A stretch of DNA of 20,000 bases, from IMG/VR virus record IMGVR_UViG_3300033067_002319; one strand, given 5' to 3'. Source of the stretch: an uncultured virus (IMG/VR IMGVR_UViG_3300033067_002319) (Duplodnaviria; Heunggongvirae; Uroviricota; Caudoviricetes). Both the position numbers and the translations under genes were made by a program. Position 1 is the stretch's first letter. The number at the start of each line of letters is the position of its first letter. The notes under the pieces were generated by a model that saw only the letters and a program-made list of their open reading frames with translations, searched no databases and was not told where the DNA came from. Shown in pieces: positions 270 to 19,443 of this stretch.

Positions 270-3083
270 TCAGCTGCAACCCAAAGAGAGCCCGCACTGA
301 GGGCAGCGATGGCAGCTGGCGTTGCGAAGGGTGATGGTACCGCAAGTTGGGCACGGCGGACCATCGGCCGAGAGAGGCTTGGTGGTGATGGTGGGTGGGA
401 TTGTGTTGATCTCCAACATCTCCGGCTGGATCTGCTGGAGATCAGTGCGCCCCGCGTACTCGACCCCCAAAACACGCATCACGAGATCCACGAGGCTGGA
501 CGCCATCTTGATCGTCTCGTGGTTGGCGACCATCCCGTAAGGTTCGAACTTCGTGTGCGTGAACGTCTCGATGAACTCATCGAGCGGAACACCGTATTGA
601 AGTCCGAGGCTCACCGACTTCGCCCACATGCCCAAGAGCCCGCTGAGTGTCGAGCCTTCCTTAGCGATGTCGACGAAGATCTCCCCGACTGAACCGTCAG
701 GGTACTCTCCCGATCGCAAGTAGATCTTGTGGTTGTCGAGCTTGAGTGCCCAGGTTTTGCCGTTGCGTACCTTCGGCAACTTGCGTTGCACGCGCTTGAA
801 CTCCGGATCGGTCTTGGGGTGCAAGACAGGATCGAGGGTTTCAGGCTTCTTCTCCTCCGGACCAGACTTCGACGACACGGGCTGTGCGCCCTTGCTTCCA
901 TTGCGGTAGAGCGCAACGGCCTTGAGCCCGAGCTTCCAGGCTTGCATGTGAATGTTCTCGATGTCTTCAACCGTTGCCGTCTCCGGAAGGTTGATGGTCT
1001 TCGAGATCGCACCCGAAAGGAATGGCTGCACGGCGGCCATCATCTCGATGTGCGCCGCAGGTGCGAGATGGCGACCATCCGTACCCGAGGGGAAAGCTGT
1101 GTCGAAGATCGGAAGATGCTTGGGCTCCAACAAGGACCCCACAAAGCCGCCCGTGTTCTTGACGTGCTCGACGATCTGAGGGATCGCAGGACCTCGGTAG
1201 CCCAGACGCGTCAGCGTGGTTTCGAGACCTGCGTTGACGATCTTGAGCGTGCCCCCACCCGCGAGCTTCTTGGTTTGAACATGTCCAAGAAGAGGCTCGA
1301 CGCCGGTGGTGTCGCAGTCCATCAAGAACCCGATGGTGCCCGTGGGCGCGAGCAGTGTGACCTGCGCGTTGCGGATGCCCTTTTTGGCCGCCAATTCGGA
1401 AGCACGGTACCAAGACGCCTGAGCCGCGTGAAGCACAGGCAGGGCCAACGAATCCTGGCCAACATCACAAAGCTGCGCGAGCTTCGATGAGGCCGACAAG
1501 TGTTTGTGGATGATGTGACGGACCCCTTCTTTGTCCGCCTGAAACCCGTCAAACGGTTCCAAGGCCTTGGCGAGCTCTCCGCTCATTTCGTACGCGCAGG
1601 CTGACATCAACGACGTCAAGGCCCCGGCAAAGTGGTGGGCCCGGCGCTCCGAGTAACCCAAGCCTACCTGCATGAGCAGAGCGCCGAGGTCTGCATAGCC
1701 GAGCCCCAGCTGCCGGAACTTGTGCGCGCCCTCGGCGATCTTCTTCGTCGGGTAGGACGCGAAGTCCACGAGGATGTCCTGCGCGACGATGAAGGTCTTG
1801 CAGGCCGCCATGTACGAAGCGACGCCAAAAGAGCCATCAGGGAGAAGGAACTTGGTGAGTCGAAGCGACGCGAGGTTGCATGCGGAATCGTCGAGATGGA
1901 CGTACTCGGAGCAGGGATTTGTCCCGTTCAACCATCCCGCGTTCGGCGTCGTGTTCCAGTTGTTGATCGTGTCGTCGAACTGAAGCCCTGGGTCCGCGCA
2001 GAACCACGAAGCCTCGGCGATCTGGTGCCAGAGGTCCTTCGCGCGGATGGTCTTCACGACGTGGCCGCCGACACGCGAGGTCAACTCCCACGGCCCGTCT
2101 TGCTCAACGGCGCGCATGAAGCCATCCGACACGCGCACCGAGTTGTTTGCGTTCTGGCCGCTCACGGTTGTCGCAGCTTCGCCCTCCATCCCGGCGGAGT
2201 AGCCAGCCGCCACGAGGACTTGCATCTTCTTCTCTTCGCGGGTCTTCCAGGCTACGAACGCCTCGATCTCGGGATGGTCCGCGTTGAGGATGACCATCTT
2301 CGCTGCGCGGCGCGTGGTCCCTCCAGACTTGATCGCGCCCGCGAAGCAATCCAAGGGCGGGAGGAACGCCATCAAGCCGCTCGACACTCCGCCAGCAGAC
2401 AGCGGCGCGTACTTCTCACGGATGCGCGAGAAGTTCGCACCCGAGCCCGAGCCGCCCTTGAAGAGCCGCGCTTCCGACTCGGCGAAGTCGTAAATGCCGC
2501 CCGGTCCGACGAGCGAGTCGTCGATCGGTTGAATGAAGCACGCCGAGCATTGAGGTCGCTGGTACGCGTTCGTCGTCACGTGCGCGCTTTGCGTCTTCTC
2601 ATCCCATGCCCAGCTTCCGCCGGCGCCTACGTAGCCGCGCTCCCAACGGCGCACATTGAACCAGACGGGCGAATTGAATGCACCGTACTGATTGATGAGC
2701 AGGAACGCCAGCTCCGCTTCGAACGCGTCGGCGTCACCTTGCGTGCAGAAGTAACCCTGCTTCCAGCCCGAAACGGCGATGGCGTTCGCCACACCCTTCA
2801 CCATGTCGAACACGCTCGTCTCGGGGTTCGAACCCTTGGTGAAGTACTTCTGAGCCACGATACGCACCGCGAGGTCCGACCACGCGACTGGCGCTTCGAT
2901 GTTGTCCTGCCGGAACACTTCAGATCCGTCAGGGTTGGTGATCACAGCGCTTCGCGTGTTACGCGGAATTGCGTCGAACGGGTGCGTACCCGCGCGAGTG
3001 AAGAAACGAGACCACGACAACCCTCCAGGCAGGGTGGCAGTCGCAGGGGACGTTTCAAGAACAGGTTCAAACTCTTCGGCCAT
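270..3083 (-). CDS. nrdJ: Adenosylcobalamin-dependent (class II) ribonucleotide reductase, ~937 aa, with C-terminal TSCPD-like domain and Zn-ribbon
   Basis: Motifs FNSPVWFN, PQCSACFI, GGTTRRAAKM, TNPCSEY (radical Cys), SACNLASL, LLAPTGTIG, SGAISKTINLP, and C-terminal CPTCG...CHRCPQCG..GCS. Start placed at ATG 3083 (MAEEF, preceded by GGAAGGGA) because the longer ORF start overlaps ruvC. Confidence 0.95.
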   Translation of the reverse strand: MAEEFEPVLETSPATATLPGGLSWSRFFTRAGTHPFDAIPRNTRSAVITNPDGSEVFRQDNIEAPVAWSDLAVRIVAQKYFTKGSNPETSVFDMVKGVANAIAVSGWKQGYFCTQGDADAFEAELAFLLINQYGAFNSPVWFNVRRWERGYVGAGGSWAWDEKTQSAHVTTNAYQRPQCSACFIQPIDDSLVGPGGIYDFAESEARLFKGGSGSGANFSRIREKYAPLSAGGVSSGLMAFLPPLDCFAGAIKSGGTTRRAAKMVILNADHPEIEAFVAWKTREEKKMQVLVAAGYSAGMEGEAATTVSGQNANNSVRVSDGFMRAVEQDGPWELTSRVGGHVVKTIRAKDLWHQIAEASWFCADPGLQFDDTINNWNTTPNAGWLNGTNPCSEYVHLDDSACNLASLRLTKFLLPDGSFGVASYMAACKTFIVAQDILVDFASYPTKKIAEGAHKFRQLGLGYADLGALLMQVGLGYSERRAHHFAGALTSLMSACAYEMSGELAKALEPFDGFQADKEGVRHIIHKHLSASSKLAQLCDVGQDSLALPVLHAAQASWYRASELAAKKGIRNAQVTLLAPTGTIGFLMDCDTTGVEPLLGHVQTKKLAGGGTLKIVNAGLETTLTRLGYRGPAIPQIVEHVKNTGGFVGSLLEPKHLPIFDTAFPSGTDGRHLAPAAHIEMMAAVQPFLSGAISKTINLPETATVEDIENIHMQAWKLGLKAVALYRNGSKGAQPVSSKSGPEEKKPETLDPVLHPKTDPEFKRVQRKLPKVRNGKTWALKLDNHKIYLRSGEYPDGSVGEIFVDIAKEGSTLSGLLGMWAKSVSLGLQYGVPLDEFIETFTHTKFEPYGMVANHETIKMASSLVDLVMRVLGVEYAGRTDLQQIQPEMLEINTIPPTITTKPLSADGPPCPTCGTITLRNASCHRCPQCGLSLGCS

Positions 3084-3108
3084 GTTGGTGAATCCCTTCC
3101 AGTAGCTA

Positions 3109-3666
3109 TCAGACGTTCGGGGTTTTCTTGCGACGCGACTTCGACGTTCGCGTGAGAGAAGTTCGGTAAGATTTAAGCCCTTCGGCATGTCCTCGCGTGA
3201 GTGCGCGTTCGGGGTCCGCGTACATCCGAGCGAAGGTGGCGAGCGCGAGGGCGTCGGCTTGGTTGTCATCCGTGATCGTCAGCTTGTGCAGCTTGTTTAC
3301 TGCGTCAATGACGTCGGCTTTGGACGCGCTGCCGTTGCTCGCAGCAAAGAGTTTCAAGGTGGACGGGGGGATGATCAGCGGCTCCACGGACCAGATAGAG
3401 TAAACCACCTCTTGGATCACCCCGAACACACTCCCGAGATCGAACTCGCGATGGGTACTTTCGAGGCTTGGACCCTCCATGGCCGCGACCTCGACAGGGA
3501 ACCCTGCCAAGGCTTCCTTGAGCTGTTGGCGGATGTGACTGAGGCGCCGACCCCCGCGCAGGTTCTCGGCTACCTTTACCGTGAACAGACGGAGCACGAC
3601 GTTGTTCTCGCTCAAGAGCGCAACGCCCGGTGCGGTCAGTGATTGATCAATCCCGAGGAAATTCAT
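3109..3666 (-). CDS. ruvC: RuvC-like Holliday junction resolvase
   Basis: N-terminal LGIDQSLTAPG, AAMEG, LKLFAASNGSASKADV and DDNQADALALA match the RuvC acidic catalytic pattern. GAAGGA lies 8 nt upstream of ATG 3666. Confidence 0.85.
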   Translation of the reverse strand: MNFLGIDQSLTAPGVALLSENNVVLRLFTVKVAENLRGGRRLSHIRQQLKEALAGFPVEVAAMEGPSLESTHREFDLGSVFGVIQEVVYSIWSVEPLIIPPSTLKLFAASNGSASKADVIDAVNKLHKLTITDDNQADALALATFARMYADPERALTRGHAEGLKSYRTSLTRTSKSRRKKTPNV

Positions 3667-4573
3667 GGCCGTCATCCTTCGCATTCGGCAACAGGGGTAC
3701 GTACGTACTGCGGGCTTTCAGGCCACGCAGTGGGCGGTAACCGTACCGGTCAGCGACCCGCCTGCGAATCCACCCATCGCGACCGACCCCTTGTCGTTCG
3801 CGCCGATGTTCGTCATCCGCAACGTCCAGGGCTTCGACACACTTGAGCGTGTCGCGACGTTGCAGGACTTTGCTTCGTTGCCTGTCTCGGAGCTGGAGTG
3901 GTTCGACGTCAGGGGCATTGGCGGTGATGCTCTTCTGGGCGGAGCCCTTGCGGGTGATACGCTTCGGATCACGACGAACCTGTCGTACTGGATCCAGGAA
4001 CAGGTCCCGTACACAGATCAGGATTTCACCCTCACACAGCTTGCAAACCGCGTCCAGGGAGCCTCTGCGCGCTGTTTTACGAGCGGCGCAATTCAGCTTC
4101 CTGGGTATGTTTTCTCGGATCAAGATGTTGGCCGATGGGTGAGGTTGTCGGACTTTCCCACCACGGGTAATAACGGCTGGGCGCAGATCACGTCCTTCGT
4201 AGGCGGCACGGCTCAAACGAACAGGACCTTCTCCGCCAACGAGACGAATGGCAGCTGGGCGTTCCCTTGGCTTCGCATTCAAAGCATCTTTGGCGGGGTC
4301 GAACCTCGATACTTTCCCACGCGCGAACAGAACCTCGGATGGGAGTTGCGCCGCAGCGGCAGTTACCTCACGGCCGGCACAGGCGGCGCGACTGCCCGAG
4401 GTGTTGACGCGCCGCTCGTACGATCGGTGCGCAACACGACGCTGGCGCCGACGCTTGACGCGGCGACGGACCTCTTCGAAGTTGTGCGCAAGGACCTGAT
4501 GCGCCTTCAGCAAGCGGCGACGACGAACGACACGGCATTCACCGTGCTCATCACTACGACAGTAGGCCCATAG
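3665..4573 (+). CDS. Hypothetical protein (302 aa), paralog A of a three-gene family, possibly virion structural
   Basis: Long ORF with GAGGA 5 nt upstream of the ATG. Beta-rich, T/G/S-rich composition. Shares the MFVIR...LERVATLQDFASLP motif with the next two genes. Confidence 0.7.
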   Translation: MAVILRIRQQGYVRTAGFQATQWAVTVPVSDPPANPPIATDPLSFAPMFVIRNVQGFDTLERVATLQDFASLPVSELEWFDVRGIGGDALLGGALAGDTLRITTNLSYWIQEQVPYTDQDFTLTQLANRVQGASARCFTSGAIQLPGYVFSDQDVGRWVRLSDFPTTGNNGWAQITSFVGGTAQTNRTFSANETNGSWAFPWLRIQSIFGGVEPRYFPTREQNLGWELRRSGSYLTAGTGGATARGVDAPLVRSVRNTTLAPTLDAATDLFEVVRKDLMRLQQAATTNDTAFTVLITTTVGP

Positions 4574-4581
4574 GAGTTCAC

Positions 4582-4959
4582 GTGGCTTGGATCACCGCTA
4601 CATGCACTGAGACGCAAGTTGACGCCCAAACCTACAAGGTCGAGTTCAACGTCAGCGACGCTGGTGGCATTGAGAAAGAGCTCTTCGTCATGCGCGTGAG
4701 CGACGACAGCTTCTCTCACGTCGCACTCGTCTACGATCTCAAGACGTTCCCGAACAGCAAGCAGGAAGCCCTGACAAAGCGCCTCGCTTTTTACCGCGTA
4801 TCGCAGATGCAGCGAACCTTCGAAGTGAAGCCCACGGCGGCGAACTTCTCGACCTACACGAAGCAGCGCCTCGCGTTCGTCACCAAGGATTGGGCCGGCG
4901 ATTCCGTGGCCGAGTTCGGCGGGATCACGACGGTCGTGTACTCTTCGGATCCAACGTGA
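4582..4959 (+). CDS. Hypothetical protein (125 aa), paralog B (minimal domain)
   Basis: GTG start with AGGAG SD. Carries LFVMR...FSHVALVYDLKTFP. Its stop overlaps the next start (GTGA). Confidence 0.75.
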   Translation: MAWITATCTETQVDAQTYKVEFNVSDAGGIEKELFVMRVSDDSFSHVALVYDLKTFPNSKQEALTKRLAFYRVSQMQRTFEVKPTAANFSTYTKQRLAFVTKDWAGDSVAEFGGITTVVYSSDPT

Positions 4960-5942
4960 GCACAATCCCCAAAGTCTCCCAGGTTCGCCGCGCTGTTCGT
5001 CTGATCGACGGGACGATGGTGTTCGAAGTCACTTCGACCATTACAGACCCCGGCGGCTTGCCGTTCAAGGACCTGTTCGTGCTCTCGATCACGGACCCTA
5101 GCGACGCCAAGGACGACGTGCTCGCGCGCGTCGCTACGCCGCTCGACATCCAGCAGACCGATCCGAGCTCCCCCAAGTACGTTCGTGTCGCGGGCGACGA
5201 TCTGATCCACATCAGCGGGGATCCTTTTGGTCGCATCGCCAGCATCGACGACTTGACCGGGCTGCCGCGCGATCGGACGGACGCGATCCGGCGCAATCGC
5301 ACGGAGTACCTCACGTCGGTCATGACGGAGCAGTACACGACCTTGACGACAGCGGATGCGGCGTACAAGCAGATCCTCTCCCGTCTTTCAGCGTTGGTGG
5401 AAGGGTGGCGCACTTCGTTCACGGCGTTCGCCACGAACCCGAGCCAGCTGTACAACCTTCCCGTCCCCGGCGTGTCGGTGGAGGCCGAGCGAACGGCGAC
5501 GTACGTAGCGGCCCGTGATGCACGTATTGCGTTAGAGACGACACGAGACGCGGCCCAAACCGCCAAAGAAGCCTGTGAACGTGACTGCGTGGCAGACAAG
5601 GCGATCTACAACTTCTTGGTGGCGGATGTTGCGTTCTTGAACGACGCCAGGAATGTGGTGGCCTCTATTACGGAAGTAGGCACCACGAACGTCAAGGACT
5701 TCGTCCTTCGTACGGGCAGCTACAGCGCCGACGAGCGCAGCTACCAGGCGCTCTTGGACTCGAAGAAGGCTTCCCTCAACGAGTACGCAGCTCGCGTACG
5801 TGCGTGTGATGTGCGTTGCGCCGCGCTTGGCGACGCCTTGCTCACCGCTCAGCGCGCGGTCACTTCAGCGCAGATTACCGAGCGGAACGCCTTGGTGGAT
5901 GTGTACGCCGTGTGCCCCTCGTTCGATCCCAACGCCGTCTAG
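4956..5942 (+). CDS. Hypothetical protein (~328 aa), paralog C with C-terminal Cys-containing coiled coil
   Basis: GTG 4956 overlaps the upstream TGA (translational coupling). Carries LFVLS...LARVATPLD. The C-terminal half is Ala-rich and helical, with CERDC, CDVRC and a terminal VCP. Confidence 0.75.
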   Translation: MSTIPKVSQVRRAVRLIDGTMVFEVTSTITDPGGLPFKDLFVLSITDPSDAKDDVLARVATPLDIQQTDPSSPKYVRVAGDDLIHISGDPFGRIASIDDLTGLPRDRTDAIRRNRTEYLTSVMTEQYTTLTTADAAYKQILSRLSALVEGWRTSFTAFATNPSQLYNLPVPGVSVEAERTATYVAARDARIALETTRDAAQTAKEACERDCVADKAIYNFLVADVAFLNDARNVVASITEVGTTNVKDFVLRTGSYSADERSYQALLDSKKASLNEYAARVRACDVRCAALGDALLTAQRAVTSAQITERNALVDVYAVCPSFDPNAV

Positions 5943-5955
5943 CATTACCCCCAAC

Positions 5956-6990
5956 ATGATCGACCTCTACTCCGATCCGGGCCACGCGCTCTTTCGTCAG
6001 CTTGTTGAGCGAGCCCCCGGCGCGCTCGCGCACCTGAAGACTGCCTCGTTTGAGCCGTCCGGCGACGGCATCCCTCTGACGGCCTTCGCATGGGCCACGG
6101 AGCGCCGCTACCCCGTTCACACGCCCGAGCATGCCGTCGTGTCGTACCTGTACGCGAAGCACGCGGACGCGGTGAAGACGGCGGCGGTGGGTCGCGGGCT
6201 TCCGGCTGGCGTCCTGGGCGACATCAAACAGGCGCTGGAGATGTACGGGATCGCGGAAGCGGATCTCGCGTTCATGGAGACGAAGGTCGCCGCGATCTCG
6301 GAAGAAGACTGCCTCTTCCCCGACAAGAAGCTGTACCCCGTGCGCGACGCCGGCGAAGTGAAGCTCGCGGAGCAAGCCCTGCAAAGCGAGTACAAGAAGC
6401 TCACACCGCTCTCGCGGCACAGGGCCTTCACCAAGTTGTCGGCGGCGGCCATGCGGCATCAGGTGGAGTTGCATCCAGCTTCACACCGCTGGGCCGGAGA
6501 GACTGCCACGAACACGGCGGACCTCGCGGATCAACTTGCGGCGCGCTCCGTTCTCGCCAAGACGGCCGAGCACGCCGAAGCCTACCGGGTACTCAGCGAC
6601 GCCGTGCTCGCCGACAAAGCCTGGTTGAAGAACGACGACAACCGGAAGAAGCTCGCGGCGCACATCGACGAGCTGGACGGGCAGGCCAAGCTGCGCACCG
6701 AGTACGATCGCCGCATCCTCGACCCGGTCGCAACGGTGTACAACACCAACATCAAGCTCGCGGCGGACGACATGGACCTGGGTTGTGGTCGCGTGGGGCG
6801 CCAACACCTGATGCGCCTCCCGCCGAGCTTCTACGGGGACGCCTTGGGTGACGATGTTCTCCCCGAGATCGCACCCGGAGGCCGTCTTGATCCCGAGAGC
6901 CTTCACGCGGTGCTCAGCACCCTCCCTGCCACGAACAAGCTCAGCTTCGTGCAGTCGTTGCGTTCCGCCGGAGTCCCTGTCGCCGAATGA
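5956..6990 (+). CDS. Hypothetical protein (~344 aa) with internal F-x(4-5)-YPV repeat and many K-[TVL]-A motifs; putative head/scaffold-associated protein
   Basis: ATG 5956 follows the upstream stop at 5942. Repeats AFAWATERRYPVHTPEH and CLFPDKKLYPVRDAGE. ATGA overlap with the next gene. Confidence 0.7.
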   Translation: MIDLYSDPGHALFRQLVERAPGALAHLKTASFEPSGDGIPLTAFAWATERRYPVHTPEHAVVSYLYAKHADAVKTAAVGRGLPAGVLGDIKQALEMYGIAEADLAFMETKVAAISEEDCLFPDKKLYPVRDAGEVKLAEQALQSEYKKLTPLSRHRAFTKLSAAAMRHQVELHPASHRWAGETATNTADLADQLAARSVLAKTAEHAEAYRVLSDAVLADKAWLKNDDNRKKLAAHIDELDGQAKLRTEYDRRILDPVATVYNTNIKLAADDMDLGCGRVGRQHLMRLPPSFYGDALGDDVLPEIAPGGRLDPESLHAVLSTLPATNKLSFVQSLRSAGVPVAE

Positions 6991-7667
6991 ACACCTCCGA
7001 AGTCCTGAACGACGCGTGCGTCGAGGTTTCCGTGGCGTGGCGCGCGGCGGAGATGCTGCTCGGGCCCACGATTGGAGCCTGGGAGCCCGAGACGCTGCGG
7101 ATCGAACTGGAGCGGCACGGCGTACCGCCCACGGATTCGCTCATGGCGAAGCTGCTGGCCGCCCAGACGATCGTGACCACTTGCGCGTGGACGTACGACC
7201 ACGACGTGCTCTTCGCCTTCGCGCTGGCCTGTGATGGCATTCCCGCCGCTTCGAACGCGATCCACCACCCGACGCCGGAGCAGCTTGCATGGGCGATTCG
7301 CGAGATCGAGACACTCAAGGACGCCAAGATCACGGACGACCACGGCTTCGATCCTGACGCCATCGACCCTGCCGTCGCGGCGGTATTGCTCGACGAAGGT
7401 ATGGTGGTGACTCCATTGCCGCTCAAGTGGGCTCAGGACGCGCTGGACACCATGGTTCAAGGCGCCTCGGGCTTGAAGGACCGTGTGCTGCCGCGCTTCC
7501 TTGCGGCTCTTGAGCAATCGGACGAGTCTTTACGGCGTACGATCTCGAAAGAGCCCAAAGACGCCGAGACCGTGCAGCTGCACCGTTTGATCGAGTGCCG
7601 CCTGTACGAAATGGAACGCGCGCACTGCCGCGCAAAGCAGCATGCAATTCTCGACCGCAACATCTGA
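6987..7667 (+). CDS. Hypothetical helical protein (226 aa) directly upstream of the large terminase
   Basis: ATGA coupling with the previous gene and an overlap with the terminase start. No recognisable motif. Confidence 0.7.
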   Translation: MNTSEVLNDACVEVSVAWRAAEMLLGPTIGAWEPETLRIELERHGVPPTDSLMAKLLAAQTIVTTCAWTYDHDVLFAFALACDGIPAASNAIHHPTPEQLAWAIREIETLKDAKITDDHGFDPDAIDPAVAAVLLDEGMVVTPLPLKWAQDALDTMVQGASGLKDRVLPRFLAALEQSDESLRRTISKEPKDAETVQLHRLIECRLYEMERAHCRAKQHAILDRNI

Positions 7668-9372
7668 CGAAGTAATCGCGCTCACACGCTCTCAGTACGC
7701 CGAGCGCACCCTTCAGTGGGACCTGAAGCCGTACAGCCTCCGCGATTACCCGATGTTCAATGCCATCTACAACGGCAGCTTTCAAAGCTTGCTGTTGAAG
7801 ACGTGCCGCCAGGTCGGCAAGAGCATGACGCTGGCGGCCTTCGCCATTTCGGAGTGCGTGGCGATCCCCGGGTTCCGGACGTTCTTCATCGCCCCGACGC
7901 AAGAGCAGACGCGAACTTTCTCGTCAGACCGCGTCGGTAAGTTTCTCCACTTCTCGCCGCTCATCCGCGACAATTTCCTCGACAACAGTCTGCCGAACCG
8001 GGTGCTTCAGCGCTCGTTCATGTCAGGCTCGCAGATCAAGTTCTCGTACGCTTCTGACGACGCTGACCGCTGCCGTGGTAACAGCGCCGACCGGATCATG
8101 TTCGACGAGGTCCAGGACATGCTCCTGGATGTGATTCGACCTGTGGTGAACGAAACACTTCGTTCATCGAACTACGAATACGAGATTTACTGCGGCACGC
8201 CCAAGACGCTCGAAAACGGCATCGAGCACATGTGGCAGAGCTCGACCCAGACCGAGTGGGCGATCAAGTGCGACAGCTGCGGCCGGCATTCGTTTCTGCT
8301 CTCGGAAACGCAGTGCGGGAAGATGGGCCCTGTTTGCACCAAGTGCCAGGCGTACCTCAATCCGCGCAACGGGCAATGGGTCGATCTGAATCGCCAACCG
8401 CCTGATGAGGACGGAGACAGCAACCAGTACAAGGGCTTCCACATCTCGCGTCTGATGATGCCGCAGAACGTACCTGCGGCATGGGCGCCTGGGACCGAAG
8501 AGTGGAAGCGTGCGCTCCGCAAGTGGAAGAGCGTGCTCGGGGCCTTGTCGGGACCCAAGGCGTACCCGATCGCAACGTTCCGGAACGAAGTACTGGGAAT
8601 TTCCGATTCCCAGGGCACCCGGCTGGTCACCAAGGCCATGCTCGCCGCGATGGCCGACGGGCCTCCGATCTGCGCGAAGCCTAGCAACGCCAACATGCAA
8701 GGCGTCACAAAAATCTCCGCTGGGTTGGATTGGTCCGGCGGCGGATCCGCGCAGGCCACCAAGGATGGCGGCGTCGTGATCAAGTCACGTACGGTCCTGG
8801 TGATTCTCGGCAAGCTCGGCATCGGGCGAACACGCCTGCTCTACTTCAAGATCTTCCCCGGCACCGGACCTGTGGAAGAGATTGAAGAGATCATCGAGGT
8901 ATTGACGGCGTACGACCGCTGGGCACAGAACATGATGTTCATCGGCGCCGACGCTGGTGTGGGTTCGATGCAGATCGACATGATCCGCAAGCGAATGCCC
9001 AAGCCGCAGAGGGTGCACAAGTTTTTCTACAGCGGCTCGTACGGCGGTTACACCGGTTGGAGCCAAAAGAAACAGGCCCGGATTCTGCACCGCACGAAGG
9101 CGATTGACGCCATCATGACGGCCTTCATCCGGGGCGAGTTTCAATGGCCGAAAGAGCCCGAACTGATCATGGAAGAGGCGTACTCGGACATCCTCGCGGA
9201 GTTCGAGACGATTGTTGGAGGCGTGGAAGCACAACGTAAATTGTGGGACCACGCCCCCAACAAACCGGACGACTTCTTACATGGAATGGTGTTTGGGAGG
9301 ACGGCCTTGCAGTTGGCGTGCAACGAGTTGGATCTCACGTCGCACATCAACCCGGATCTTGAGGCTGATTAG
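7642..9372 (+). CDS. terL: Phage terminase large subunit (lambda gpA-like ATPase + RNase H-fold nuclease)
   Basis: Walker A KTCRQVGKS, FIAPT, Walker B RGNSADRIMFDEVQD, coupling motif GTP, two CxxC motifs (CDSC, CTKC), GFHISRL, FRNEVLG, nuclease GLDW and PDDFLH. Confidence 0.9.
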   Translation: MQFSTATSDEVIALTRSQYAERTLQWDLKPYSLRDYPMFNAIYNGSFQSLLLKTCRQVGKSMTLAAFAISECVAIPGFRTFFIAPTQEQTRTFSSDRVGKFLHFSPLIRDNFLDNSLPNRVLQRSFMSGSQIKFSYASDDADRCRGNSADRIMFDEVQDMLLDVIRPVVNETLRSSNYEYEIYCGTPKTLENGIEHMWQSSTQTEWAIKCDSCGRHSFLLSETQCGKMGPVCTKCQAYLNPRNGQWVDLNRQPPDEDGDSNQYKGFHISRLMMPQNVPAAWAPGTEEWKRALRKWKSVLGALSGPKAYPIATFRNEVLGISDSQGTRLVTKAMLAAMADGPPICAKPSNANMQGVTKISAGLDWSGGGSAQATKDGGVVIKSRTVLVILGKLGIGRTRLLYFKIFPGTGPVEEIEEIIEVLTAYDRWAQNMMFIGADAGVGSMQIDMIRKRMPKPQRVHKFFYSGSYGGYTGWSQKKQARILHRTKAIDAIMTAFIRGEFQWPKEPELIMEEAYSDILAEFETIVGGVEAQRKLWDHAPNKPDDFLHGMVFGRTALQLACNELDLTSHINPDLEAD

Positions 9373-10001
9373 GTGAAGAACCGCGTCATGGCGTACTCGA
9401 ACACCGCCATGCCGCGCTTCACGTCGGCGACGGCCCGGTGCTCTTGCAGCGCCGGGGCTCCGAGCGCCGCGTGGGCTCCGAGCGCCGCGTAGGCTTCGTG
9501 CAAGCCCCACACGTCCAGCTTGTACTGGAGTGCGATCTGCGCGGAGAAGCTCTGGAGCTCGATGATGCGCCGGGCCCAGGGATCCATCCACACCTTGCGC
9601 TTCTCGTCCCACACACGAATGCCTGCGTCGAGAAGAGCCGTCTCCAGGAAGCCGCGATCGAAGTAGACGTTCGAGCTGCAAAGCACGCCGTAGCGGGCGA
9701 ACTGGGCGAACTTCTTCCACTGCACGTGAGCTTCGGGTGATCCGACTGTGGGTGCGTTCACCCAGTCCGGATGCTCTTTGTGCCACCCGTTGACTTTGAA
9801 TGCCTCCGCGCCGAGGGCAGCCTGCTTCTCCGTCGGCTTGAACCGCCACACCCGGATGTCAGGGATCGTCGGCCACTTCTCGATCGACATCGGCACCCGG
9901 CAAGCCGCGAGCTCGATGATGACGTTCTCTTTGGGGTCGAGGCCGGTGGTCTCGACGTCGACGAAGAGCAGATCAGGGAGTTTTGTGTCGGGAATGTTCA
10001 T
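9369..10001 (-). CDS. DEDDh 3'-5' exonuclease (DnaQ/RNase T/oligoribonuclease-like)
   Basis: ExoI FVDVETTGLDP, ExoII SNVYFDRGFL, ExoIII HRAVADV. AAGGAG SD upstream; TTG 10004 is an alternative start. Confidence 0.9.
   Translation of the reverse strand: MNIPDTKLPDLLFVDVETTGLDPKENVIIELAACRVPMSIEKWPTIPDIRVWRFKPTEKQAALGAEAFKVNGWHKEHPDWVNAPTVGSPEAHVQWKKFAQFARYGVLCSSNVYFDRGFLETALLDAGIRVWDEKRKVWMDPWARRIIELQSFSAQIALQYKLDVWGLHEAYAALGAHAALGAPALQEHRAVADVKRGMAVFEYAMTRFFT
9455..9490. repeat. Exact 18-bp tandem duplication (GGGCTCCGAGCGCCGCGT x2) inside the exonuclease gene
   Basis: Read directly at 9455-9472 and 9473-9490. It encodes AALGAH/AALGAP in frame. Confidence 0.9.
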
Positions 10002-10227
10002 CAAAACGAATCTCCTTCACATAGCGGGTGAAAATACAAAAATGGTCCTTGTTACCCACCCGTTGGTAAACATGGGAGAACCCATCGTGAGGTTCGTACC
10101 CAATGCCACGCTTCCTGTCAATCTTTCGTAGAAACGCGTACCATCGCGACCGAAGCCGAAGCCACAACCCCAGCTTCGGAGGCGGCACGGGGATCACCAG
10201 CGCCGCCTTTCGGTATGGGTCAATCAC
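9973..10227 (-). CDS. Small basic hypothetical protein (84 aa)
   Basis: The GTG start overlaps the polymerase TGA (GTGA) and the ORF fills the gap to the exonuclease. No motif recognised. Confidence 0.45.
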   Translation of the reverse strand: MIDPYRKAALVIPVPPPKLGLWLRLRSRWYAFLRKIDRKRGIGYEPHDGFSHVYQRVGNKDHFCIFTRYVKEIRFDEHSRHKTP

Positions 10228-13200
10228 GCCGCGAACCCCTTGCTACGCGGGGCGCTCGTGACTTCATCCGGGTTGCGGAGGTCCTCGAAGACTTCCTCTT
10301 CCGTGCAGCCGTCAAGCTGCTGCGTGATCTCTGGCGGCAGGCCCGCGATGTACTTCGCTGCCGGCATGACCGAGCCGTAGTTGGCTCCGAGCTCGACGTC
10401 CCAGCGATACGGCACCGGCAGCCACGGGCACGCCTTCGCGACCCGATCCGTGCCGTACTCCTTGAAGATCGCTGGAACCTGGTGGGCGTACTTCTTCGGC
10501 ACCTGGAACATGATCGAGTCGTGGACTGTTCCGAGCAGGCGCCCGCGCAAGTCCCGCTCAATCACGGGTGCAACCCAGCAGAGCACGGACAAGACGATGT
10601 CCGAGTTCGTGCCCTGGATCTTAAAATTCACTGCCTGACGCTCTGCCTTGGCGCGCAGGCTGTTTGGGGCGTTCTTGATCGAGAAGCGGCGTCGGCGACC
10701 GTGGTAGGTTTCCACGATCTGGAACATCCGCATCTCCCACTTGGTCTGCTCCATGTACGCTTCGAGCGTAGGGAACTTGGTGAAGAGCATGTCGCGGATG
10801 GTCTGCGCCAGGACGAGGTCGATGCCGGCGATGTCGGCGATCTTCTTGATACCTGCGCCGAACAGCAGCCCGAAGACCAGGCGCTTGATGTTGTCGCGAA
10901 GAGCCTTGAGGCGTTTGCCGTACACCTTGTCGGGGTGGAGGTCGTCCTTACCCGCCAAGAAGTCTTCGTACGACCACGCGTGTTCGTCGTCGATTCCCGC
11001 CAGCGCCAATGCGTGCTGGCGGTCCGCGCCCGTCTTTGTACCTGCGACGGCGTCAGGGTTCAGGCACTGCGACGCGAAGAAGCAGTGGGCATCCATCCCT
11101 CCGATCAGCGCGTTGATCAGGGCTTCGTCCATCGCATAGCCGGCGAAGATGGAGACCTCAGCGCCCTTGGCGTCGGCGTTGCCGAAGCACATCGACTCAT
11201 CATCAGGAATGAAGAGGTTCTTGCACTTCACCCCTTCGAAGAGCGGCTTGCCGTTCGCTCCGAGAATGAGCTTTCCGTGCGAGTCACGAAGAGCTCCCAG
11301 ATTCCCTTTCGGGATGTTCTGGTTGTTAAACCCGATCCCTACGACACCCGACGAGCTGGACAGGCGGCCGGTCGAAGTGCCGTTGAGGTTGTAGTTCGGG
11401 TGGATCTTCCCGTCGCCGAACATGTTCGACAGGATGCCAATGTTCTTGAAGAACGAGTTACGCGCCTTGTCGGCCTTCTTCAAGGACATGATCAAGTTGG
11501 CCAGCGGGCACTGGTACCGCATCACCAAGTGCTTCAGAACAGCCTCAGATGTCTGCATCTGACCCTTCTCGGTGTAGTGCCGAGATCGGTACATGATGCG
11601 CCCGCCGACGTACCGGACGAGACCCGGGTTCTTGTCGGCCATTTCCTGGGCGAGCTTGGGGTCAGGGTGGACATACCCGACACCGCCTTCGAACAAGTAG
11701 CTCGCGAGTTTCTTTGAACTGCCGATCTTGAAGGTCTCGCCGCAGAGCTCGTAGACCTTGTTGGTGGTCGACGAGATCGTGTTGTCGAGGGCCTTGGCGC
11801 CCCATTCGAGATAACCCTGGTCGATCTTGACGCCGTTGTACTCGATCTTCCCGAGCTCGACTTGACGCGGTAAATAGGCCATCTGAAGAAGGTTCTTCAG
11901 CGGGTTCTCGTCCGGGTAGAGAACCTTCACCTTGTACTTGCTCAGCTCGCTTCCGGGCGGCGCAAACGAGATCTCATCGGCGACCTGATCCCGCCAACGA
12001 GCCAACTTCTCGTCTTCATCCAGCATCCTGTCCATCTGCTCGAATGCGATGCGCCGCGTGGCGTCGGCGTCGACAGCGGCGTAGAAGACCATCTCGTGGC
12101 GTGAAACCTTTTCGAAGCCGCCCTTGCGGGACTTCTGCTTGGCGGCTTCCTTCTGCGCCGCGCCAGAGAACTCCCCGTTCTTTTTGGCTGCGATGAGAAG
12201 GGCGATGTCGCTTCGCGCTTCGTCGCTCAGCGTGTTTGTCGCGAGCCGTTTCTCCAGTGACTTCACTTGAAACGTTGCAGACTTGATGTACTTCGCGGCC
12301 ACTGCACGATTGAGGGCTTCCACTACCGCCGGCAGCAGCCGGACCTGTTTGACCTTCGTGACCTGTACCAGTTCACCTTCGGCCTCAAGGTCCTCAGCCT
12401 CTGTCTTCTCCAGCTCGTCGTGCAAGCGATCCTGGTAGCCCGCGAGCTCTGGGTGCCTCTCGGCGGTGATCCGCTTGAGGCTGTAGTGGTTCTTCTTGTC
12501 CTCTTCGAGCGTGTGCTCGCCGGAGAGGGTGTCCCACTTCGTGTTGCCGATGGGACCCTGCGGGAACCCCATCTTCCACATGACCTTCTGATCGTACTTG
12601 AGCCCGTGGCCGACCAAGGGCTTGAACGTGTTGATCAGCTCGACGATCAGGTTCCAGGCTTCTTGCGGATCGTACTTCGTCTCCGGGTGCCAGAGCATGA
12701 TCGTCGCAGCACGCCCGGTGTCCCAGGCGAACGATGCCGCAACGACTTGAAGTCGGTCTTCGAAGGGGTGGAGGGTGTTCGTTTCGGTGTCGAAAGAGAT
12801 GGGCCAATCTTTCGGCGCGACGTCCTCATGCCCGGTGTAGTTGGCGATGAGTTTGATCAGCGATCGAACTTCCTCGATCGTCTCGGGGTATACGTAGTCC
12901 TTCTCCACTTCCTCGCGAGGTAGGACTCGGATCTCTGCTTTGGTTGCGATGCGCATGGCGCGTTCAACGTCAGCGAGCACTGAGGAGTACTTGCCGACCG
13001 CGCCCGCGATTGCCTTCAGCGACCGAGTGAACACCACCGTGAGCATGGCGTCGCCGAACGGCACGTTGTCGAACACACGGCCCGTTGCGTCCCTCTCGGA
13101 CTTGGCAGGGACGCCGAGCGAGTGGAGAGCCGTAAGACCGCAGGCGATGACGGTGATCGACTTCTCGCCGCCGTTGGCCGCGCGCCGCAACACGAGCCGG

Positions 13201-13622
13201 TTGATCTCGGTCTTGAGCGGCGTACGGCACGACGCGATCATGTCCTTGTTCGGTTTGTCCACGGCGCACTTGACGCCGTAGATGTACCGGAACCTGAGCG
13301 CATCGAAGGATGGGCGATCCTTCTGTACGTCCTGAATGGCGCGCTGAAGCACCTTCGAGCCATCGTCTCGGAACGACGCATGGAACAGCGACGAGTCAGG
13401 AATCTCCCGGCCGCCGATGACCATGAGCCGAGGGACGGTGGGCACGTCTCCGACAATGACGATGTCTGCGTGATCGTCGCCGGCGGAGTTGGGAAAGAAG
13501 TGGGTGTCTTTGAACGCGGGGCACGTGACGCAGCTGGGCCCTGCTTTCGAGACGTTGTCGGGCCTTGAGCACACCGCGCAGCAGAATGGCGGCGGTGGCT
13601 CTGGGCGAGAGATAGTAGGCAT
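10224..13622 (-). CDS. Family A DNA polymerase (1132 aa): N-terminal UDG-family-4-like domain, 3'-5' exonuclease, polymerase
   Basis: Exo motifs SFDTET, GHGLKYD, YAAVDADAT. Polymerase motifs TSTGRLSS, NQNIP, motif A DAKGAE, motif B RDNIKRLVFGLLFG, NFKIQG, motif C VHDS. N-terminal CxxC, IVIVGDVP, VKC and IASC resemble family 4 UDG. AGGAGA SD. Confidence 0.93.
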   Translation of the reverse strand: MPTISRPEPPPPFCCAVCSRPDNVSKAGPSCVTCPAFKDTHFFPNSAGDDHADIVIVGDVPTVPRLMVIGGREIPDSSLFHASFRDDGSKVLQRAIQDVQKDRPSFDALRFRYIYGVKCAVDKPNKDMIASCRTPLKTEINRLVLRRAANGGEKSITVIACGLTALHSLGVPAKSERDATGRVFDNVPFGDAMLTVVFTRSLKAIAGAVGKYSSVLADVERAMRIATKAEIRVLPREEVEKDYVYPETIEEVRSLIKLIANYTGHEDVAPKDWPISFDTETNTLHPFEDRLQVVAASFAWDTGRAATIMLWHPETKYDPQEAWNLIVELINTFKPLVGHGLKYDQKVMWKMGFPQGPIGNTKWDTLSGEHTLEEDKKNHYSLKRITAERHPELAGYQDRLHDELEKTEAEDLEAEGELVQVTKVKQVRLLPAVVEALNRAVAAKYIKSATFQVKSLEKRLATNTLSDEARSDIALLIAAKKNGEFSGAAQKEAAKQKSRKGGFEKVSRHEMVFYAAVDADATRRIAFEQMDRMLDEDEKLARWRDQVADEISFAPPGSELSKYKVKVLYPDENPLKNLLQMAYLPRQVELGKIEYNGVKIDQGYLEWGAKALDNTISSTTNKVYELCGETFKIGSSKKLASYLFEGGVGYVHPDPKLAQEMADKNPGLVRYVGGRIMYRSRHYTEKGQMQTSEAVLKHLVMRYQCPLANLIMSLKKADKARNSFFKNIGILSNMFGDGKIHPNYNLNGTSTGRLSSSSGVVGIGFNNQNIPKGNLGALRDSHGKLILGANGKPLFEGVKCKNLFIPDDESMCFGNADAKGAEVSIFAGYAMDEALINALIGGMDAHCFFASQCLNPDAVAGTKTGADRQHALALAGIDDEHAWSYEDFLAGKDDLHPDKVYGKRLKALRDNIKRLVFGLLFGAGIKKIADIAGIDLVLAQTIRDMLFTKFPTLEAYMEQTKWEMRMFQIVETYHGRRRRFSIKNAPNSLRAKAERQAVNFKIQGTNSDIVLSVLCWVAPVIERDLRGRLLGTVHDSIMFQVPKKYAHQVPAIFKEYGTDRVAKACPWLPVPYRWDVELGANYGSVMPAAKYIAGLPPEITQQLDGCTEEEVFEDLRNPDEVTSAPRSKGFAA

Positions 13623-13645
13623 TCAGTCTCTCCTGTGGGGGGTTT

Positions 13646-16600
13646 TTAGAGCGTGCCGTTACTTCGACGCGGACGGGAAAGCCCTGGGGGTCCGTCATCG
13701 TTTACGGCACGCGTGCGAGGAGTCTCTTCGGAGTCGGTTCGATTTCCTTCGGGCTTCGGAGGCTCTTTGTAGTGAAGACGAAGTTGGTTGATCATATCAC
13801 TGACGCGTAAAAATGTCAGTTCATTGCCAATGACATGAACTGCCAAGCTCTGTAACCAATTCGTCATCTCGGCCATCAGCGGAGCCATCTCCGCCTTTCG
13901 GATCACGCGCGAGTGCTGATCCATCTGGTACTTCATCTGCGTGGGATTCGCATGACAGTACGGCTCGGTGCGCGTGAGCAAACCGTTGTTGGCGTTGAGC
14001 GAAGCCCAGTCGACCGCAAGCAACTTGTGCTGCTCGTGGTAGTACACGCCGCACTGCGCTTGGTTGAGCTGCCGCCACCGCCCCTCGCTTGAAGCAAGCA
14101 ACGAGGAGATCGAGGACGTAGCTCCGTTTGCGCCCACGCGCACCGCGTTGACGCGCATGATCGTATCGAAGAGCTGGTTCGTCAGCGTGCTTCGCTCTGT
14201 CGCGGCGAGGTGGTCCTGCCGTGTCTTGGTGGCCGCGATGACGAACGCGCGCCAGTCTTCTCCGAGCAAGTCCATGAGCGGCGCGACACCGAAGAAGTTG
14301 CGCAAGAAACGCGAGTCGACATTGAAGCCAATGTCGAGCGCGCCCGTGGACAGCTCGTGCTCAATCGGACCCGAGCGGTCTCGCACACGCTTGTAGTACT
14401 TGAGCAAGCCAAGGGTCATCGTACGGCGTAAAGCAGCCAGGCCTTCGAGGCCGAACTGCTTCTTCAACCCAGCGGCCGGATCAGCCTTGCCCGTGCGCTT
14501 GACGGTCTCGACCGTGTATCGACGCGACGCATCCTGTGCGTCGAACGCGGGGTTGATGGACGCAGTCACGATGTTGGTCTTGATCACGCGCGTGACGGTC
14601 TTGCCGTCGAGGCTGCCGCGCGTGACGGTTGCGCCGCCAGGGAAGATGACCTGACGGAGCAACTGATTGATGTCCTCGACCTGTCGCGACTTGTGCGTCT
14701 GCGGTTGAAGCGGGTCGCGCGTGAACTCCTCCAAGCACATCGCCAGCGTGGTGTACCCGAAACGCTGGTAGAGCGACGCGGGAGTGTAGTCCGCCATGCC
14801 GACTGCCCAGCCGCAGACTTGCAGTTCTGGGTACTGACCCCCGCAGAACAAGCTCAGCAAAGTTGACTTGCCGGACGAAGGCTGCCCGACGAGTTCCAGG
14901 TGGATGCGAGAATCCGAGAGGTGCGGCGCGCTGAGCCCCGCCAGCATGCCCGCGAGCATGAGCGAGTCGACAGCCGTGTGTTGGAACTCCCAGTACGTCT
15001 TGATTGCTTCGGCGAGCTGAAGGAAGGTGTTTCGAAGGTCCGCGACGGTGATGAGGTTGCCTGCTTCTACGTCAGCCGGTGTCGCAAGATCGGGAGAGAC
15101 CGCTTGCGGTTGGATGTCGAAGATCAAGCGCCCGTCGCTCGGCCCGTCCAAACGAATGGCGGTGAGCTCATCTCCTTCAGGCTTGGCGTACTTCGCCTTC
15201 AGCACGTTGGGCCCATTCACGATGTAGAACACCACGCCGTTGGGGGCGTCCACGTCTTCGACAACATGAATACCCTGGCCGAGCGTGCGGCACTCGTCCT
15301 TGAGTGGAACCGCACAGAAGATCGATTGGAAGGCGATCTTCAAGTAGCTGCCAAGCGTACGTTGCAGCTCCTTCACAGGCATCACAAGGCCCGCCCCCTG
15401 TTGCGGCAGAATCCAACCTGGAATCGAGATCTGTTCCGCAAAGTACCGGTACACGTCGCCGGCGACGTTGGCGATCATGGCGATCAACGCTTCGCCATTG
15501 TCGACGAAGGCACGGACAGGGCGCCGCGACGCACGATGAAACAAGTGCAAGATCTGACCCCGCGCCGTCTCCTCGCGGTAGGTCACGTGGAAGTCGCGCA
15601 ACAACCCTTCGGTCAAACGCACAATGAATCCGGCTTCATCGTCCGCCGCTTGGATGATCTCGTTGCGGACAACGCTGGGCGTGAGTCCCAACGCTGCGCA
15701 GATTCGTGTGATGTACTGCTCGCGCTGTGAGTCAACGCGAACACACTCACCGAAAGCCACCGCCACCGTAGTGCGCTCCCGAACCTCGTCGGTGGTGTAG
15801 TGGAGCGCGTCCTCGATAGCACGATCTGCGGCCCACACATCAACGGGCGCGAACCACTTGGCCTTCTCGTCGAACACCACTTTCTTGAAGAGGGGGAAGC
15901 CCCCCATCACAACCAGCGCGTCCGGGTCGCCAGGGGTGCCAGGAACCTCTTTGAACTCGTTCCAACCTCGGAAGACCTTGACGCCGATCTCTCTAGCCGT
16001 TTTAAGGCGCTCGCGGGCCCAGCGCTCCCCGTTCGCGAGCGAGGGGTGATCGCTCATCATGTAGATCTCGTCGATACCCGCATCCCGAGAAAGGGCGTCG
16101 AGGTCGTTGAACGCTCCGTTCGATGCGATCACAGCCCAGGACGAATGTCCGCCGCTCAGAAGGCCTTCGAGCGTAGACAACATGTCGTTCTCGCCCTCGA
16201 CCAGAAGCCAGTTGATGTCCTTGGCCTCATTCTTGGAGAGTCCGCCGAGATACGGAGCCCACAGCCCGAAGTAGCCAATCGGTTCATCGTCAACTGAGCC
16301 AGGCATGAGCAGGTAGTGCCCGTCCTTCTCGTTGTCGAGAGCCGGCTTGCGCAACCGGATACGTCCCGGAGTGCGCATGCCGTGGCCGTTGAAGTACGCG
16401 ACCGCGTAGGTCCATTCGCTCGCAGCGGCAGCTGCTACCTCTTTCACGCGAGCGAGAATCTTCTCGCGCTTCTCCGCGTTGAGCGCAGTGGTTTGGTAAC
16501 GCTTGTAGTCGTCCGTCGCTTGGTTTTCCAGATACTCGGACGCGTACGCGAACAGCATGTGTTGCGGTGGCCATACGCCGTAAGGCAGCGCGCGAACATA

Positions 16601-17161: not shown

Positions 17162-17205
17162 GGGGGCCCTTCATTCCGCCGTGGTTAGATGTTGGCCAAG
17201 TTCAA

Positions 17206-18066: not shown

Positions 18067-18102
18067 GTGAAACTCCGGTCGAAAGAAATGGGGGTGGGAG
18101 AC

Positions 18103-18144
18103 CCACGAGGCCGCGTACCCCGTAAAGGGCACGCGGCCTCGTGG
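18103..18144 (-). promoter_or_regulatory. Long intergenic stem-loop without adjacent U-tract
   Basis: CCACGAGGCCGCGT (18103-18116) pairs perfectly with ACGCGGCCTCGTGG (18131-18144). On the minus-strand RNA the stem extends by G-U pairs to about 19 bp. Confidence 0.7.
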
Positions 18145-18157
18145 TCGACCAGGGGAG

Positions 18158-19330: not shown

Positions 19331-19443
19331 TCTTTTGATGTTCCTAGTGTTCAGGGTGCTCTTGATTAACTGGGTCAGGTTTTCCTGCCTCAGCGACTCG
19401 GTTGGGTGTACACCTCGTTTCCGATCCAGTAAAGGTTGGCTCC
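19331..19443. promoter_or_regulatory. Divergent promoter region between the replication operon and the sigma factor
   Basis: The only sizeable divergent intergenic gap in the window, and more AT-rich than the flanks. Contains the palindrome GGTGTACACC (19405-19414). Confidence 0.5.

Follow-up and report, generated by a model that had tools for sequence, protein, structure and literature searches.

We analysed a 20,000-nucleotide (nt) stretch of DNA (the window; G+C content 61%) from the uncultured Caudoviricetes virus record IMGVR_UViG_3300033067_002319 of IMG/VR, in which a block of six plus-strand genes ending with the terminase gene terL (3665-9372) lies between two groups of minus-strand genes, with no spacer at either end. 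It seems rather likely that the block and the two minus-strand clusters beside it form three separate transcription units, with promoters and terminators located within neighbouring coding sequence, and that the overlaps at their junctions are short, local and mainly a by-product of compaction. The block would then represent an anciently fixed plus-strand cluster, encoding five clade-specific proteins and then TerL, between two minus-strand clusters for DNA metabolism. The junction overlaps would mainly reflect extreme compaction of a genome organized in many short units of alternating strand, with ruvC-nrdJ and the packaging cluster interfering with each other to a limited degree at most, and a 5.7-kb read-through from the exonuclease gene into ruvC would not be needed. 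All coordinates and strands refer to the whole window, unless a contig or locus of a related phage is named.

Open reading frames (ORFs), family matches and the G+C content at codon positions bear out the layout proposed in a first-pass annotation of the window, i.e., six plus-strand genes flanked by minus-strand ruvC-nrdJ and exonuclease-polA-primase, with zero spacer at both ends. The flanks do consist of replication genes, whereas the term "operon" used for them in that annotation is an assumption only. The left minus-strand cluster contains ruvC, which encodes a RuvC-like Holliday-junction resolvase (3109-3666, minus strand; PHROG 159, E 1.3e-33; Pfam RuvC, 23.8 bits with a cut-off of 22.2), and its final gene encodes an nrdJ-like class II (B12-dependent) ribonucleotide reductase (270-3269, minus strand; Pfam Ribonuc_red_lgC, E 3.1e-121, and Ribonuc_red_2_N, E 3.1e-16). 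The final gene of the right minus-strand cluster encodes a DnaQ/RNase T-type 3'-5' exonuclease (9369-10001, minus strand; Pfam RNase_T, E 4.2e-9; PHROG 192, E 4.5e-18), starting at ATG 10001 with GAAGGAG upstream. The last block gene, terL (7642-9372, plus strand), encodes a GpA-type terminase large subunit (GpA_ATPase, E 4.3e-14, 53.2 bits with a curated cut-off of 25.6; Terminase_6N, E 8e-6, 26.1 bits with a cut-off of 22; PHROG 675, E 3.3e-43). Codon-position G+C supports the strand and frame of every gene listed here from nrdJ to g14, at the far end of the right cluster, apart from g10, and its phase flips from the minus-strand to the plus-strand pattern near 3650.

At the left junction, the four bases CATG at 3664-3667 carry both ATG 3665 of g3, the first block gene, on the plus strand and ATG 3666 of ruvC on the minus strand, which confirms the shared start that had been proposed; the two genes stand head to head with a 2-nt overlap. 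The sequence GAGGAA is located 5 nt upstream of the g3 start, within ruvC codons, and AAGGA is located 8 nt upstream of the ruvC start on the minus strand, within g3 codons. Since the start is shared and each ribosome-binding region lies inside the partner gene, the two mRNA leaders would form an antisense pair of ~30 nt or more, unless both are leaderless. Both genes are real, as indicated by family matches for ruvC and, for g3, by the phase of G+C at third codon positions (GC3), conservation in 16 relatives and a confident predicted fold. Two extra in-frame ATGs lie upstream in ruvC, at 3675 and 3684, neither of them conserved; ATG 3666, the sole candidate common to the relatives, is most likely the true start. 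The public protein record of g3 starts at Met48, 47 codons late and omitting 3665-3805, although residues 3-47 are conserved in relatives. The gene caller thus avoided the head-to-head overlap, and such junctions are hidden by automatic annotation.

We compared the left junction in 17 relatives having both ruvC and g3. CATG was kept in ten of them (L014, L015, L016, L017, L019, L021, L022, L023, L031 and L069; the near-identical L015 and L022 are both counted). Three loci (L024, L025 and L028) have ruvC/g3 spacings of -8 to +4 nt and GTG starts, and four (L026, L029, L032 and L044) have spacers of 22-38 nt that hold only ribosome-binding-like sequence. The length of the N-terminus varies among the CATG loci for RuvC as well as for the g3 protein; codons were therefore gained or lost in both genes, yet CATG itself did not change. 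A search of the literature on CATG start-start overlaps found nothing specific.

At the right junction, TTAG at 9369-9372 provides the TAG stop of terL and the TAA stop of the exonuclease gene, tail to tail with a 4-nt gene overlap, which again agrees with the earlier description. Because of this shared stop, a transcript that extends beyond the last codons continues as antisense RNA of the convergent gene. The absence of a terminator hairpin here, also noted earlier, was upheld by a scan of the window, which found no intrinsic terminator at 9369-9372, and by folds of the junction on both strands, which were no better than shuffles (z -1.67 and -0.72). The only canonical minus-strand intrinsic terminator found by the scan follows nrdJ (178-211, read from 211 to 178), with a 15-bp stem containing 10 G-C pairs and then TTCCTTTGCC. 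The first-pass annotation had named a single clear minus-strand terminator, at 171-210; it is indeed the only canonical one, but a stable minus-strand hairpin at 18103-18144 had been overlooked. This hairpin, located between g14 and a PD-(D/E)XK nuclease gene, is very stable (106-nt fold, -59 kcal/mol, z -6.9) and has no adjacent U-tract, with ATTTCTTTCG 13 nt downstream. Given the hairpin, the nuclease gene most likely starts at ATG 18066 and not at GTG 18132.

Among 17 relatives compared at the right junction, the -4 overlap of terL and the exonuclease gene is also found in L024 and L025; five others have spacings of 0, -12, +6, +16 and +25 nt, and nine have 423-1662 nt of extra DNA between the two genes. 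In L023, the terL locus of the complete related genome G002, the spacing is +55 nt, and this spacer contains a canonical minus-strand intrinsic terminator with a 12-bp stem, 9 G-C pairs and the tail CGTTTTCTTT. Given this terminator after the exonuclease gene, ruvC in G002 needs its own promoter, even though the CATG common to ruvC and g3 is retained there too.

The lack of any spacer leaves two options: read-through of transcription, or placement of all promoters and terminators within genes. This dichotomy, formulated in the first-pass annotation, follows from the geometry, whereas its 5.7-kb read-through branch is without support, given the G002 terminator and the mosaic relatives described below. 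Signals within neighbouring genes are on record for phages: in the transcriptomes covered by the account in PMC10914365, 28% of terminators lie within the downstream neighbouring gene, and antisense RNAs as well as bidirectional terminators between convergent genes are reported.

An assembly artefact does not account for the layout. The whole stretch is contained in a single 82.8-kb contig of the probable source run (X1); contigs of a run from a different study (X2, ~95% identical) span 2500-4672 and 8892-9947, across the left and the right junction, and a contig from a third study (X7) spans 9267-9417, across the right junction. To describe its conservation, we collected terL relatives (373 at E <= 0.001, up to 65% identity, on contigs of up to 190 kb), used a terminase alignment to scan IMG/VR, from which 80 loci were retained, and compared the window proteins with these loci by tblastn. 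All 68 loci having polA carry it on the opposite strand to the right of terL, all 64 loci having g6 carry it on the terL strand to the left of terL, and all 23 loci having ruvC carry it on the opposite strand, left of the block. In each of the 20 loci that include both flanks, these are arranged as in the window, at terL identities of 37-64%, and the gene order of the right cluster is kept in relatives. The exonuclease gene stands next to ruvC in none of the related loci, a synteny check that had been suggested earlier. The arrangement is thus ancient and conserved across the clade. Recoding of stop codons in relatives was considered and rejected, as every in-frame stop sits at the end of a tblastn match.

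The relatives are uncultivated phages, and the phage of the window is without a close cultured relative: a blastn comparison of 3000-10300 with 50,697 phage records found nothing, and for polA no match in cultured phages covered 80% of the query. The best cultured terL match, Salmonella phage Arash, is 29.7% identical, and its terL neighbourhood is laid out otherwise. Complete genomes with direct terminal repeats are represented by two related contigs, G002 (172,374 bases) and G003 (186,803 bases). A crude GC3-based map of G002 contains 205 genes in 54 strand blocks, 22 of which are single ORFs and possible miscalls. The block is not continuous in L034, a more distant relative. Between its g5 and g6 homologs stand four genes on the minus strand (L034 2283-6918), in the order of a gene of unassigned function, a reverse transcriptase (RVT_1, E 4e-21), a second gene of unassigned function and a VWA/DUF2201 metallopeptidase-like gene, and a MoxR-like AAA ATPase gene (L034 8702-9964, minus strand) lies between g7 and terL, with junctions of 1 to 45 nt. 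Short clusters of alternating strand occur throughout the relatives, which implies many local promoters. The nested block is accordingly one instance of the general build of the clade and no special insertion into a single operon. The reverse transcriptase of L034 is next but one to the g5 homolog, and a diversity-generating retroelement is possible there.

Several observations weigh against three separate units with signals inside their neighbours. A sigma-70 consensus scan of the window was uninformative, returning 2 sites as compared with 3.1 in shuffles, neither near the junctions, and neither g3 nor ruvC could be assigned a promoter. No RNA run on record contains 2500-10500. The terminator argument rests on a single relative, G002; seven further relatives, with spacings of 25 nt or less or with an overlap, have no recognisable terminator at the right junction, nor does the window, so that read-through there could still occur. 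Strand switches in G002 are also fewer than its crude gene map suggests. Finally, the retention of CATG through insertions and deletions on both sides could mean that the overlap itself is under selection.

The last point leads to a somewhat unlikely explanation, a switch selected for its 5' overlap, i.e., a strict excludon. Promoters facing each other from inside g3 and ruvC would make expression of ruvC-nrdJ and g3-terL mutually exclusive, through collision of polymerases and RNase III cleavage of the paired leaders, and would time packaging against DNA metabolism. CATG persists in the 10 of 17 relatives despite gain and loss of N-terminal codons, and even the spacers of 22-38 nt are too small for two promoters. 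In phages T4 and T7 there is a functional link between resolvase and packaging, which also counts in favour of such a switch. Divergent overlaps are the rarest class in prokaryotes, with 331 among 58 genomes as compared with 1,890 convergent and 12,737 codirectional ones in Table 2 of PMC2174442, so the long retention here is notable. Against this, no promoter for such a switch was located, 7 of the 17 relatives lost the exact overlap and kept the gene order, purifying selection on two start codons suffices for the retention, and tight junctions are general in the clade, which fits compaction.

A more elaborate version of this switch includes a DNA motif, CTTTACGSCGTAC, which is strongly over-represented, roughly 100-fold and clade-wide. 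The exact form TTTACNNNGTA occurs 5 times in the window as compared with 0.04 expected, and none of 200 shuffles reached 5. The copies are located at 4790-4800 (plus), 7529-7540 (plus), 14421-14432 (minus), 18115-18126 (minus) and 19540-19551 (plus); allowing up to 2 mismatches, TTTACGSCGTAC occurs 9 times as compared with 1.57 expected, and 8 of these 9 copies are co-oriented with the local gene. A repeat search of the window added only one further degenerate copy. G002 contains 88 matches (72 oriented sites and 8 palindromic pairs), with ~0.9 expected from base composition. A C precedes the motif in 66 of the 72 oriented sites, of which 24 are intergenic, 26 lie co-oriented within genes and 22 lie antisense within genes. 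In other sub-clades GTACGSCGTAC is found 9 to 11 times per ~20 kb, as compared with 0.1-0.2 expected. The core of the motif, TACGSCGTA, is palindromic, and copies occur in all three reading phases, with rare codons: TTA accounts for only 8 of 569 Leu codons, and 2 of these 8 lie within motif copies.

Within the block, the minus strand has no copies of the motif, while the plus-strand copies precede g5 and terL. The copy TTTACCGCGTA lies within g4 (4790-4800, plus strand), 155 nt ahead of the g5 start, and is found at the same place in G002. The copy TTTACGGCGTAC lies within g7 (7529-7540, plus strand), ~100 nt ahead of the terL ATG, and uses the rare Leu codon TTA. Its position is kept in L013-L018, L022, L023 and L069, and ATACGSCGTAT stands there in L024 and L025. 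Another copy in the window lies at the apex of the hairpin at 18103-18144. The motif could be a promoter, an operator for a dimeric DNA-binding protein or a sequence-specific terminator. We consider it unlikely that CATG and the zero-spacer junctions constitute a selected antisense toggle between the DNA-metabolism and packaging clusters, peculiar to the clade, with CTTTACGSCGTAC as the control element of the clade's own transcription system, in one of these three roles. In G002, a second recurrent element, GGGTATAAG(G/A)A, stands just ahead of the starts of small genes (L094 and L099-L101, e.g., 14649-16136), often downstream of a hairpin plus a motif copy; it resembles an early promoter. This second G002 motif (GGTATAAG) showed no enrichment in the window.

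The reading preferred in the first-pass annotation, a non-contiguous operon, we regard as decidedly unlikely. A single early or middle minus-strand transcript would run through 5.7 kb into ruvC-nrdJ and silence the block until late in infection. This would fit with the lack of a terminator at 9369-9372, the position of the sole canonical minus-strand terminator after nrdJ, and the absence of motif copies from the minus strand of the block, and non-contiguous operons are reported for S. aureus and its phages in the account of PMC7154746. The relatives argue otherwise: the canonical terminator of G002 directly follows the exonuclease gene, extra DNA separates terL from the exonuclease gene in nine of 17, and minus-strand genes break up the block in distant relatives, so that the flanks do not form a single conserved unit. 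Rho would also be expected to terminate early any untranslated transcript of 5.7 kb that the host polymerase produces; GC skew across the block gave nothing usable for this argument. The ribosome-binding sequence of ruvC is uninformative about its promoter. The proposed consequence, that read-through represses terminase and head genes during replication, is therefore without support, and apart from terL the late or head identity of these genes is unproven.

Very improbable, in our judgement, is leaderless back-to-back initiation, in which a phage polymerase or sigma factor would start both mRNAs at the A of each ATG in the palindromic CATG, so that only 2 nt overlap and no antisense effect arises. 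Both starts are ATG wherever CATG is kept, while relatives that lost the overlap often use GTG; by-eye reading found the ribosome-binding-like sequence of g3 to be absent or weak in ~4 of the 10 CATG loci, and phages of the clade encode a polymerase and a sigma-like factor of their own. In contrast, the window and several relatives have good, properly spaced ribosome-binding sequences for both genes, and a search across relatives found no conserved promoter-like element flanking CATG. An assembly artefact or a recent inversion of the block, the former having been named earlier as what would overturn the layout, can be dismissed, since contigs from two other studies bridge the junctions, 20 of 20 relatives are alike, the G+C fraction shows no compositional break (0.60-0.66 inside the block, 0.58-0.63 in the flanks) and nothing was found in favour. 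Three separate units, with signals placed inside their neighbours, remain the arrangement that we prefer; the co-oriented motif copies ahead of g5 and terL, the even composition across the block and the transcription genes of the clade also count in their favour.

The products of the block were analysed by family, profile and structure searches. No Pfam or PHROG family was found for g3, g4, g5 or g7, and five of the six block genes are without one, so that "structural" or "head" genes, as the block had been called, is a label and not a finding. The first gene, g3 (3665-4573, plus strand; 302 amino acids, aa), is conserved from residue 3 in the alignment. Its AlphaFold2 model (predicted local distance difference test score, pLDDT, 84; predicted template modelling score, pTM, 0.82) is beta-rich with a C-terminal helix. 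Foldseek gave no match for this model; the best VIA hit (Z 7.4), within the usual noise of the tool, was a 75-residue beta-barrel (residues 126-203) like tailspike, tail-tip and connector domains. The g4 product (4582-4959, plus strand; 125 aa) is conserved, with 16 sequences in the alignment. The start of g5 (4956-5942, plus strand; 328 aa) was placed by alignment and sequence reading at GTG 4956, which corresponds to V23 of the long ORF and overlaps the g4 stop as GTGA. The protein has an N-terminal domain and a Cys-bearing coiled-coil-like tail, and a Pfam match was found in none of 19 family members. A g4-g5 frameshift, which the 70-nt overlap of the long g5 ORF with g4 had suggested, was rejected, the conserved start being GTG 4956.

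The g6 gene (5956-6990, plus strand; 344 aa) starts at ATG 5956 and encodes a DUF6582-type N-terminal region; DUF6582 was detected in 16 of 49 family members at E <= 0.01 (best 9e-8), with the window copy scoring 18.7 bits, under the cut-off of 27.3. The g7 gene (6987-7667, plus strand; 226 aa) starts with an ATG that overlaps the g6 stop as ATGA. Its product is all-alpha in the AlphaFold2 model (pLDDT 94, pTM 0.91), for which no solved counterpart was found (best Foldseek E against PDB 0.29; best VIA Z 5.8, within the noise range of that tool), and a search of BFVD gave one uncharacterised phage protein at E 6e-7; these fold searches did not show g7 to be a small terminase. Profiles of g3, g5, g6 and g7 against PDB sequences gave nothing under E 0.02, and Atlas look-ups for the block genes yielded nothing beyond viral clusters without names and weak leads to a tail tube or adaptor. 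Portal, major capsid, scaffold and protease were not recognised among g3-g7 by Pfam/PHROG, PDB profiles or structure matches of g3 and g7. Thus, TerL is the only identifiable product of the block, and g3-g7 appear to be clade-specific. The G002 TerL (L023 10001-12169) is 725 aa long, ~140 aa of which are inserted between query residues 161 and 154, and P0022, another relative of TerL, has 920 aa and carries PF14528; these are possible inteins or homing-endonuclease inserts.

The right minus-strand cluster (10224-19330) contains polA, encoding a family A DNA polymerase (10224-13622), the genes of a primase-helicase (13646-17161) and the PD-(D/E)XK nuclease (17206-18066), and g14 (18158-19330), with Pfam and PHROG matches for the cluster; the GC3 phase fits each of these minus-strand genes as well as nrdJ. 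Between polA and the exonuclease gene, g10, an ORF of 84 aa (9973-10227, minus strand), has no codon-position G+C support and is absent in most relatives. The interval 10005-10223, with TTGACA-N17-TACGAA on its minus strand, could serve as a regulatory spacer ahead of the exonuclease gene. Divergent from g14 and running off the window is the gene of a Sigma70_r2 protein (19445-20000, plus strand; 30 bits with a Pfam cut-off of 24). The 114-nt spacer between g14 and this sigma-like gene holds CTTTAC-N17-GTACAC (19408-19434, minus strand), which we infer to be a candidate promoter of the right, replication cluster. The same two elements are found with the same spacing upstream of the g14 homolog of G002, and TTTACA-N17-TATTAA stands upstream of that of L069. 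As a general promoter form, CTTTAC-N17-GTAC was rejected, as it is not enriched, with one copy each in the window and G002, and is not common to distant g14 upstream regions. A minus-strand ORF at 19390-19911 has no codon-position G+C support, and scans of the window for Rfam families and tRNAs found none.

The sigma-like protein is 41% identical to its counterpart in G002 (E 2e-38). G002 also encodes a 1660-aa fused RNA polymerase beta/beta'-N subunit (L097:7201-12183, plus strand; Rpb2_6, E 2e-46; Rpb1_2, E 3e-17), a separate 599-aa beta'-C subunit (L097:13236-15035, plus strand; Rpb1_5, E 6e-15), a Sigma70_r2 protein and a ParB-like helix-turn-helix protein. With its fused polymerase, sigma-like factor and over-represented motif, the clade is a candidate for an undescribed transcription system.

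Several known systems resemble the arrangement in part. In the coliphages 186 and P2, face-to-face promoters for lytic and lysogenic genes produce 5' transcript overlap and interference, mapped in 186 to a 62-bp intergenic overlap. With divergent genes whose promoters lie beyond each other, 186 is the nearest mechanistic analogue of the left junction, although in the window the promoters would sit within coding sequence. According to the account of Toledo-Arana and Lasa 2020 (PMC7154746), what defines the excludon (Sesto et al. 2013) is the observation of overlapping RNAs together with reciprocal expression of the partners. The window shares its opposite-strand neighbours, and the left junction fits the "5' UTR overlap" (5' untranslated region) drawn in that account and the right one convergent genes without a terminator; here, in contrast, the arrangement is known from genes alone, and there is no intergenic DNA, so overlapping leaders are coding sequence of the partner. 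The S. aureus non-contiguous operon menE-menC-MW1733-ytkD-MW1731, as presented in the same account, has one interspersed gene and demonstrated co-transcription of its flanks. It shares with the window function-related same-strand genes parted by opposite-strand genes, an order kept in all 20 relatives with both flanks, but six genes (5.7 kb) are interspersed here, the evidence is genomic, and in G002 a terminator stands where read-through would begin. Large lytic phages with their own polymerases, such as phiKZ, are likewise described in PMC10914365 with many units on both strands, terminators inside neighbouring genes and antisense RNAs. The clade differs from them in showing no sequence kinship by blastn and in having beta/beta' parts that are fused and not split, and start-sharing at cluster boundaries is not described in the parts of that report drawn on here.

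If the overlaps regulate expression, the phage would time packaging against DNA metabolism without any intergenic DNA, with all signals inside partner genes. If they do not, the junctions would show the extent to which genes can be packed in an uncultivated clade of large phages.

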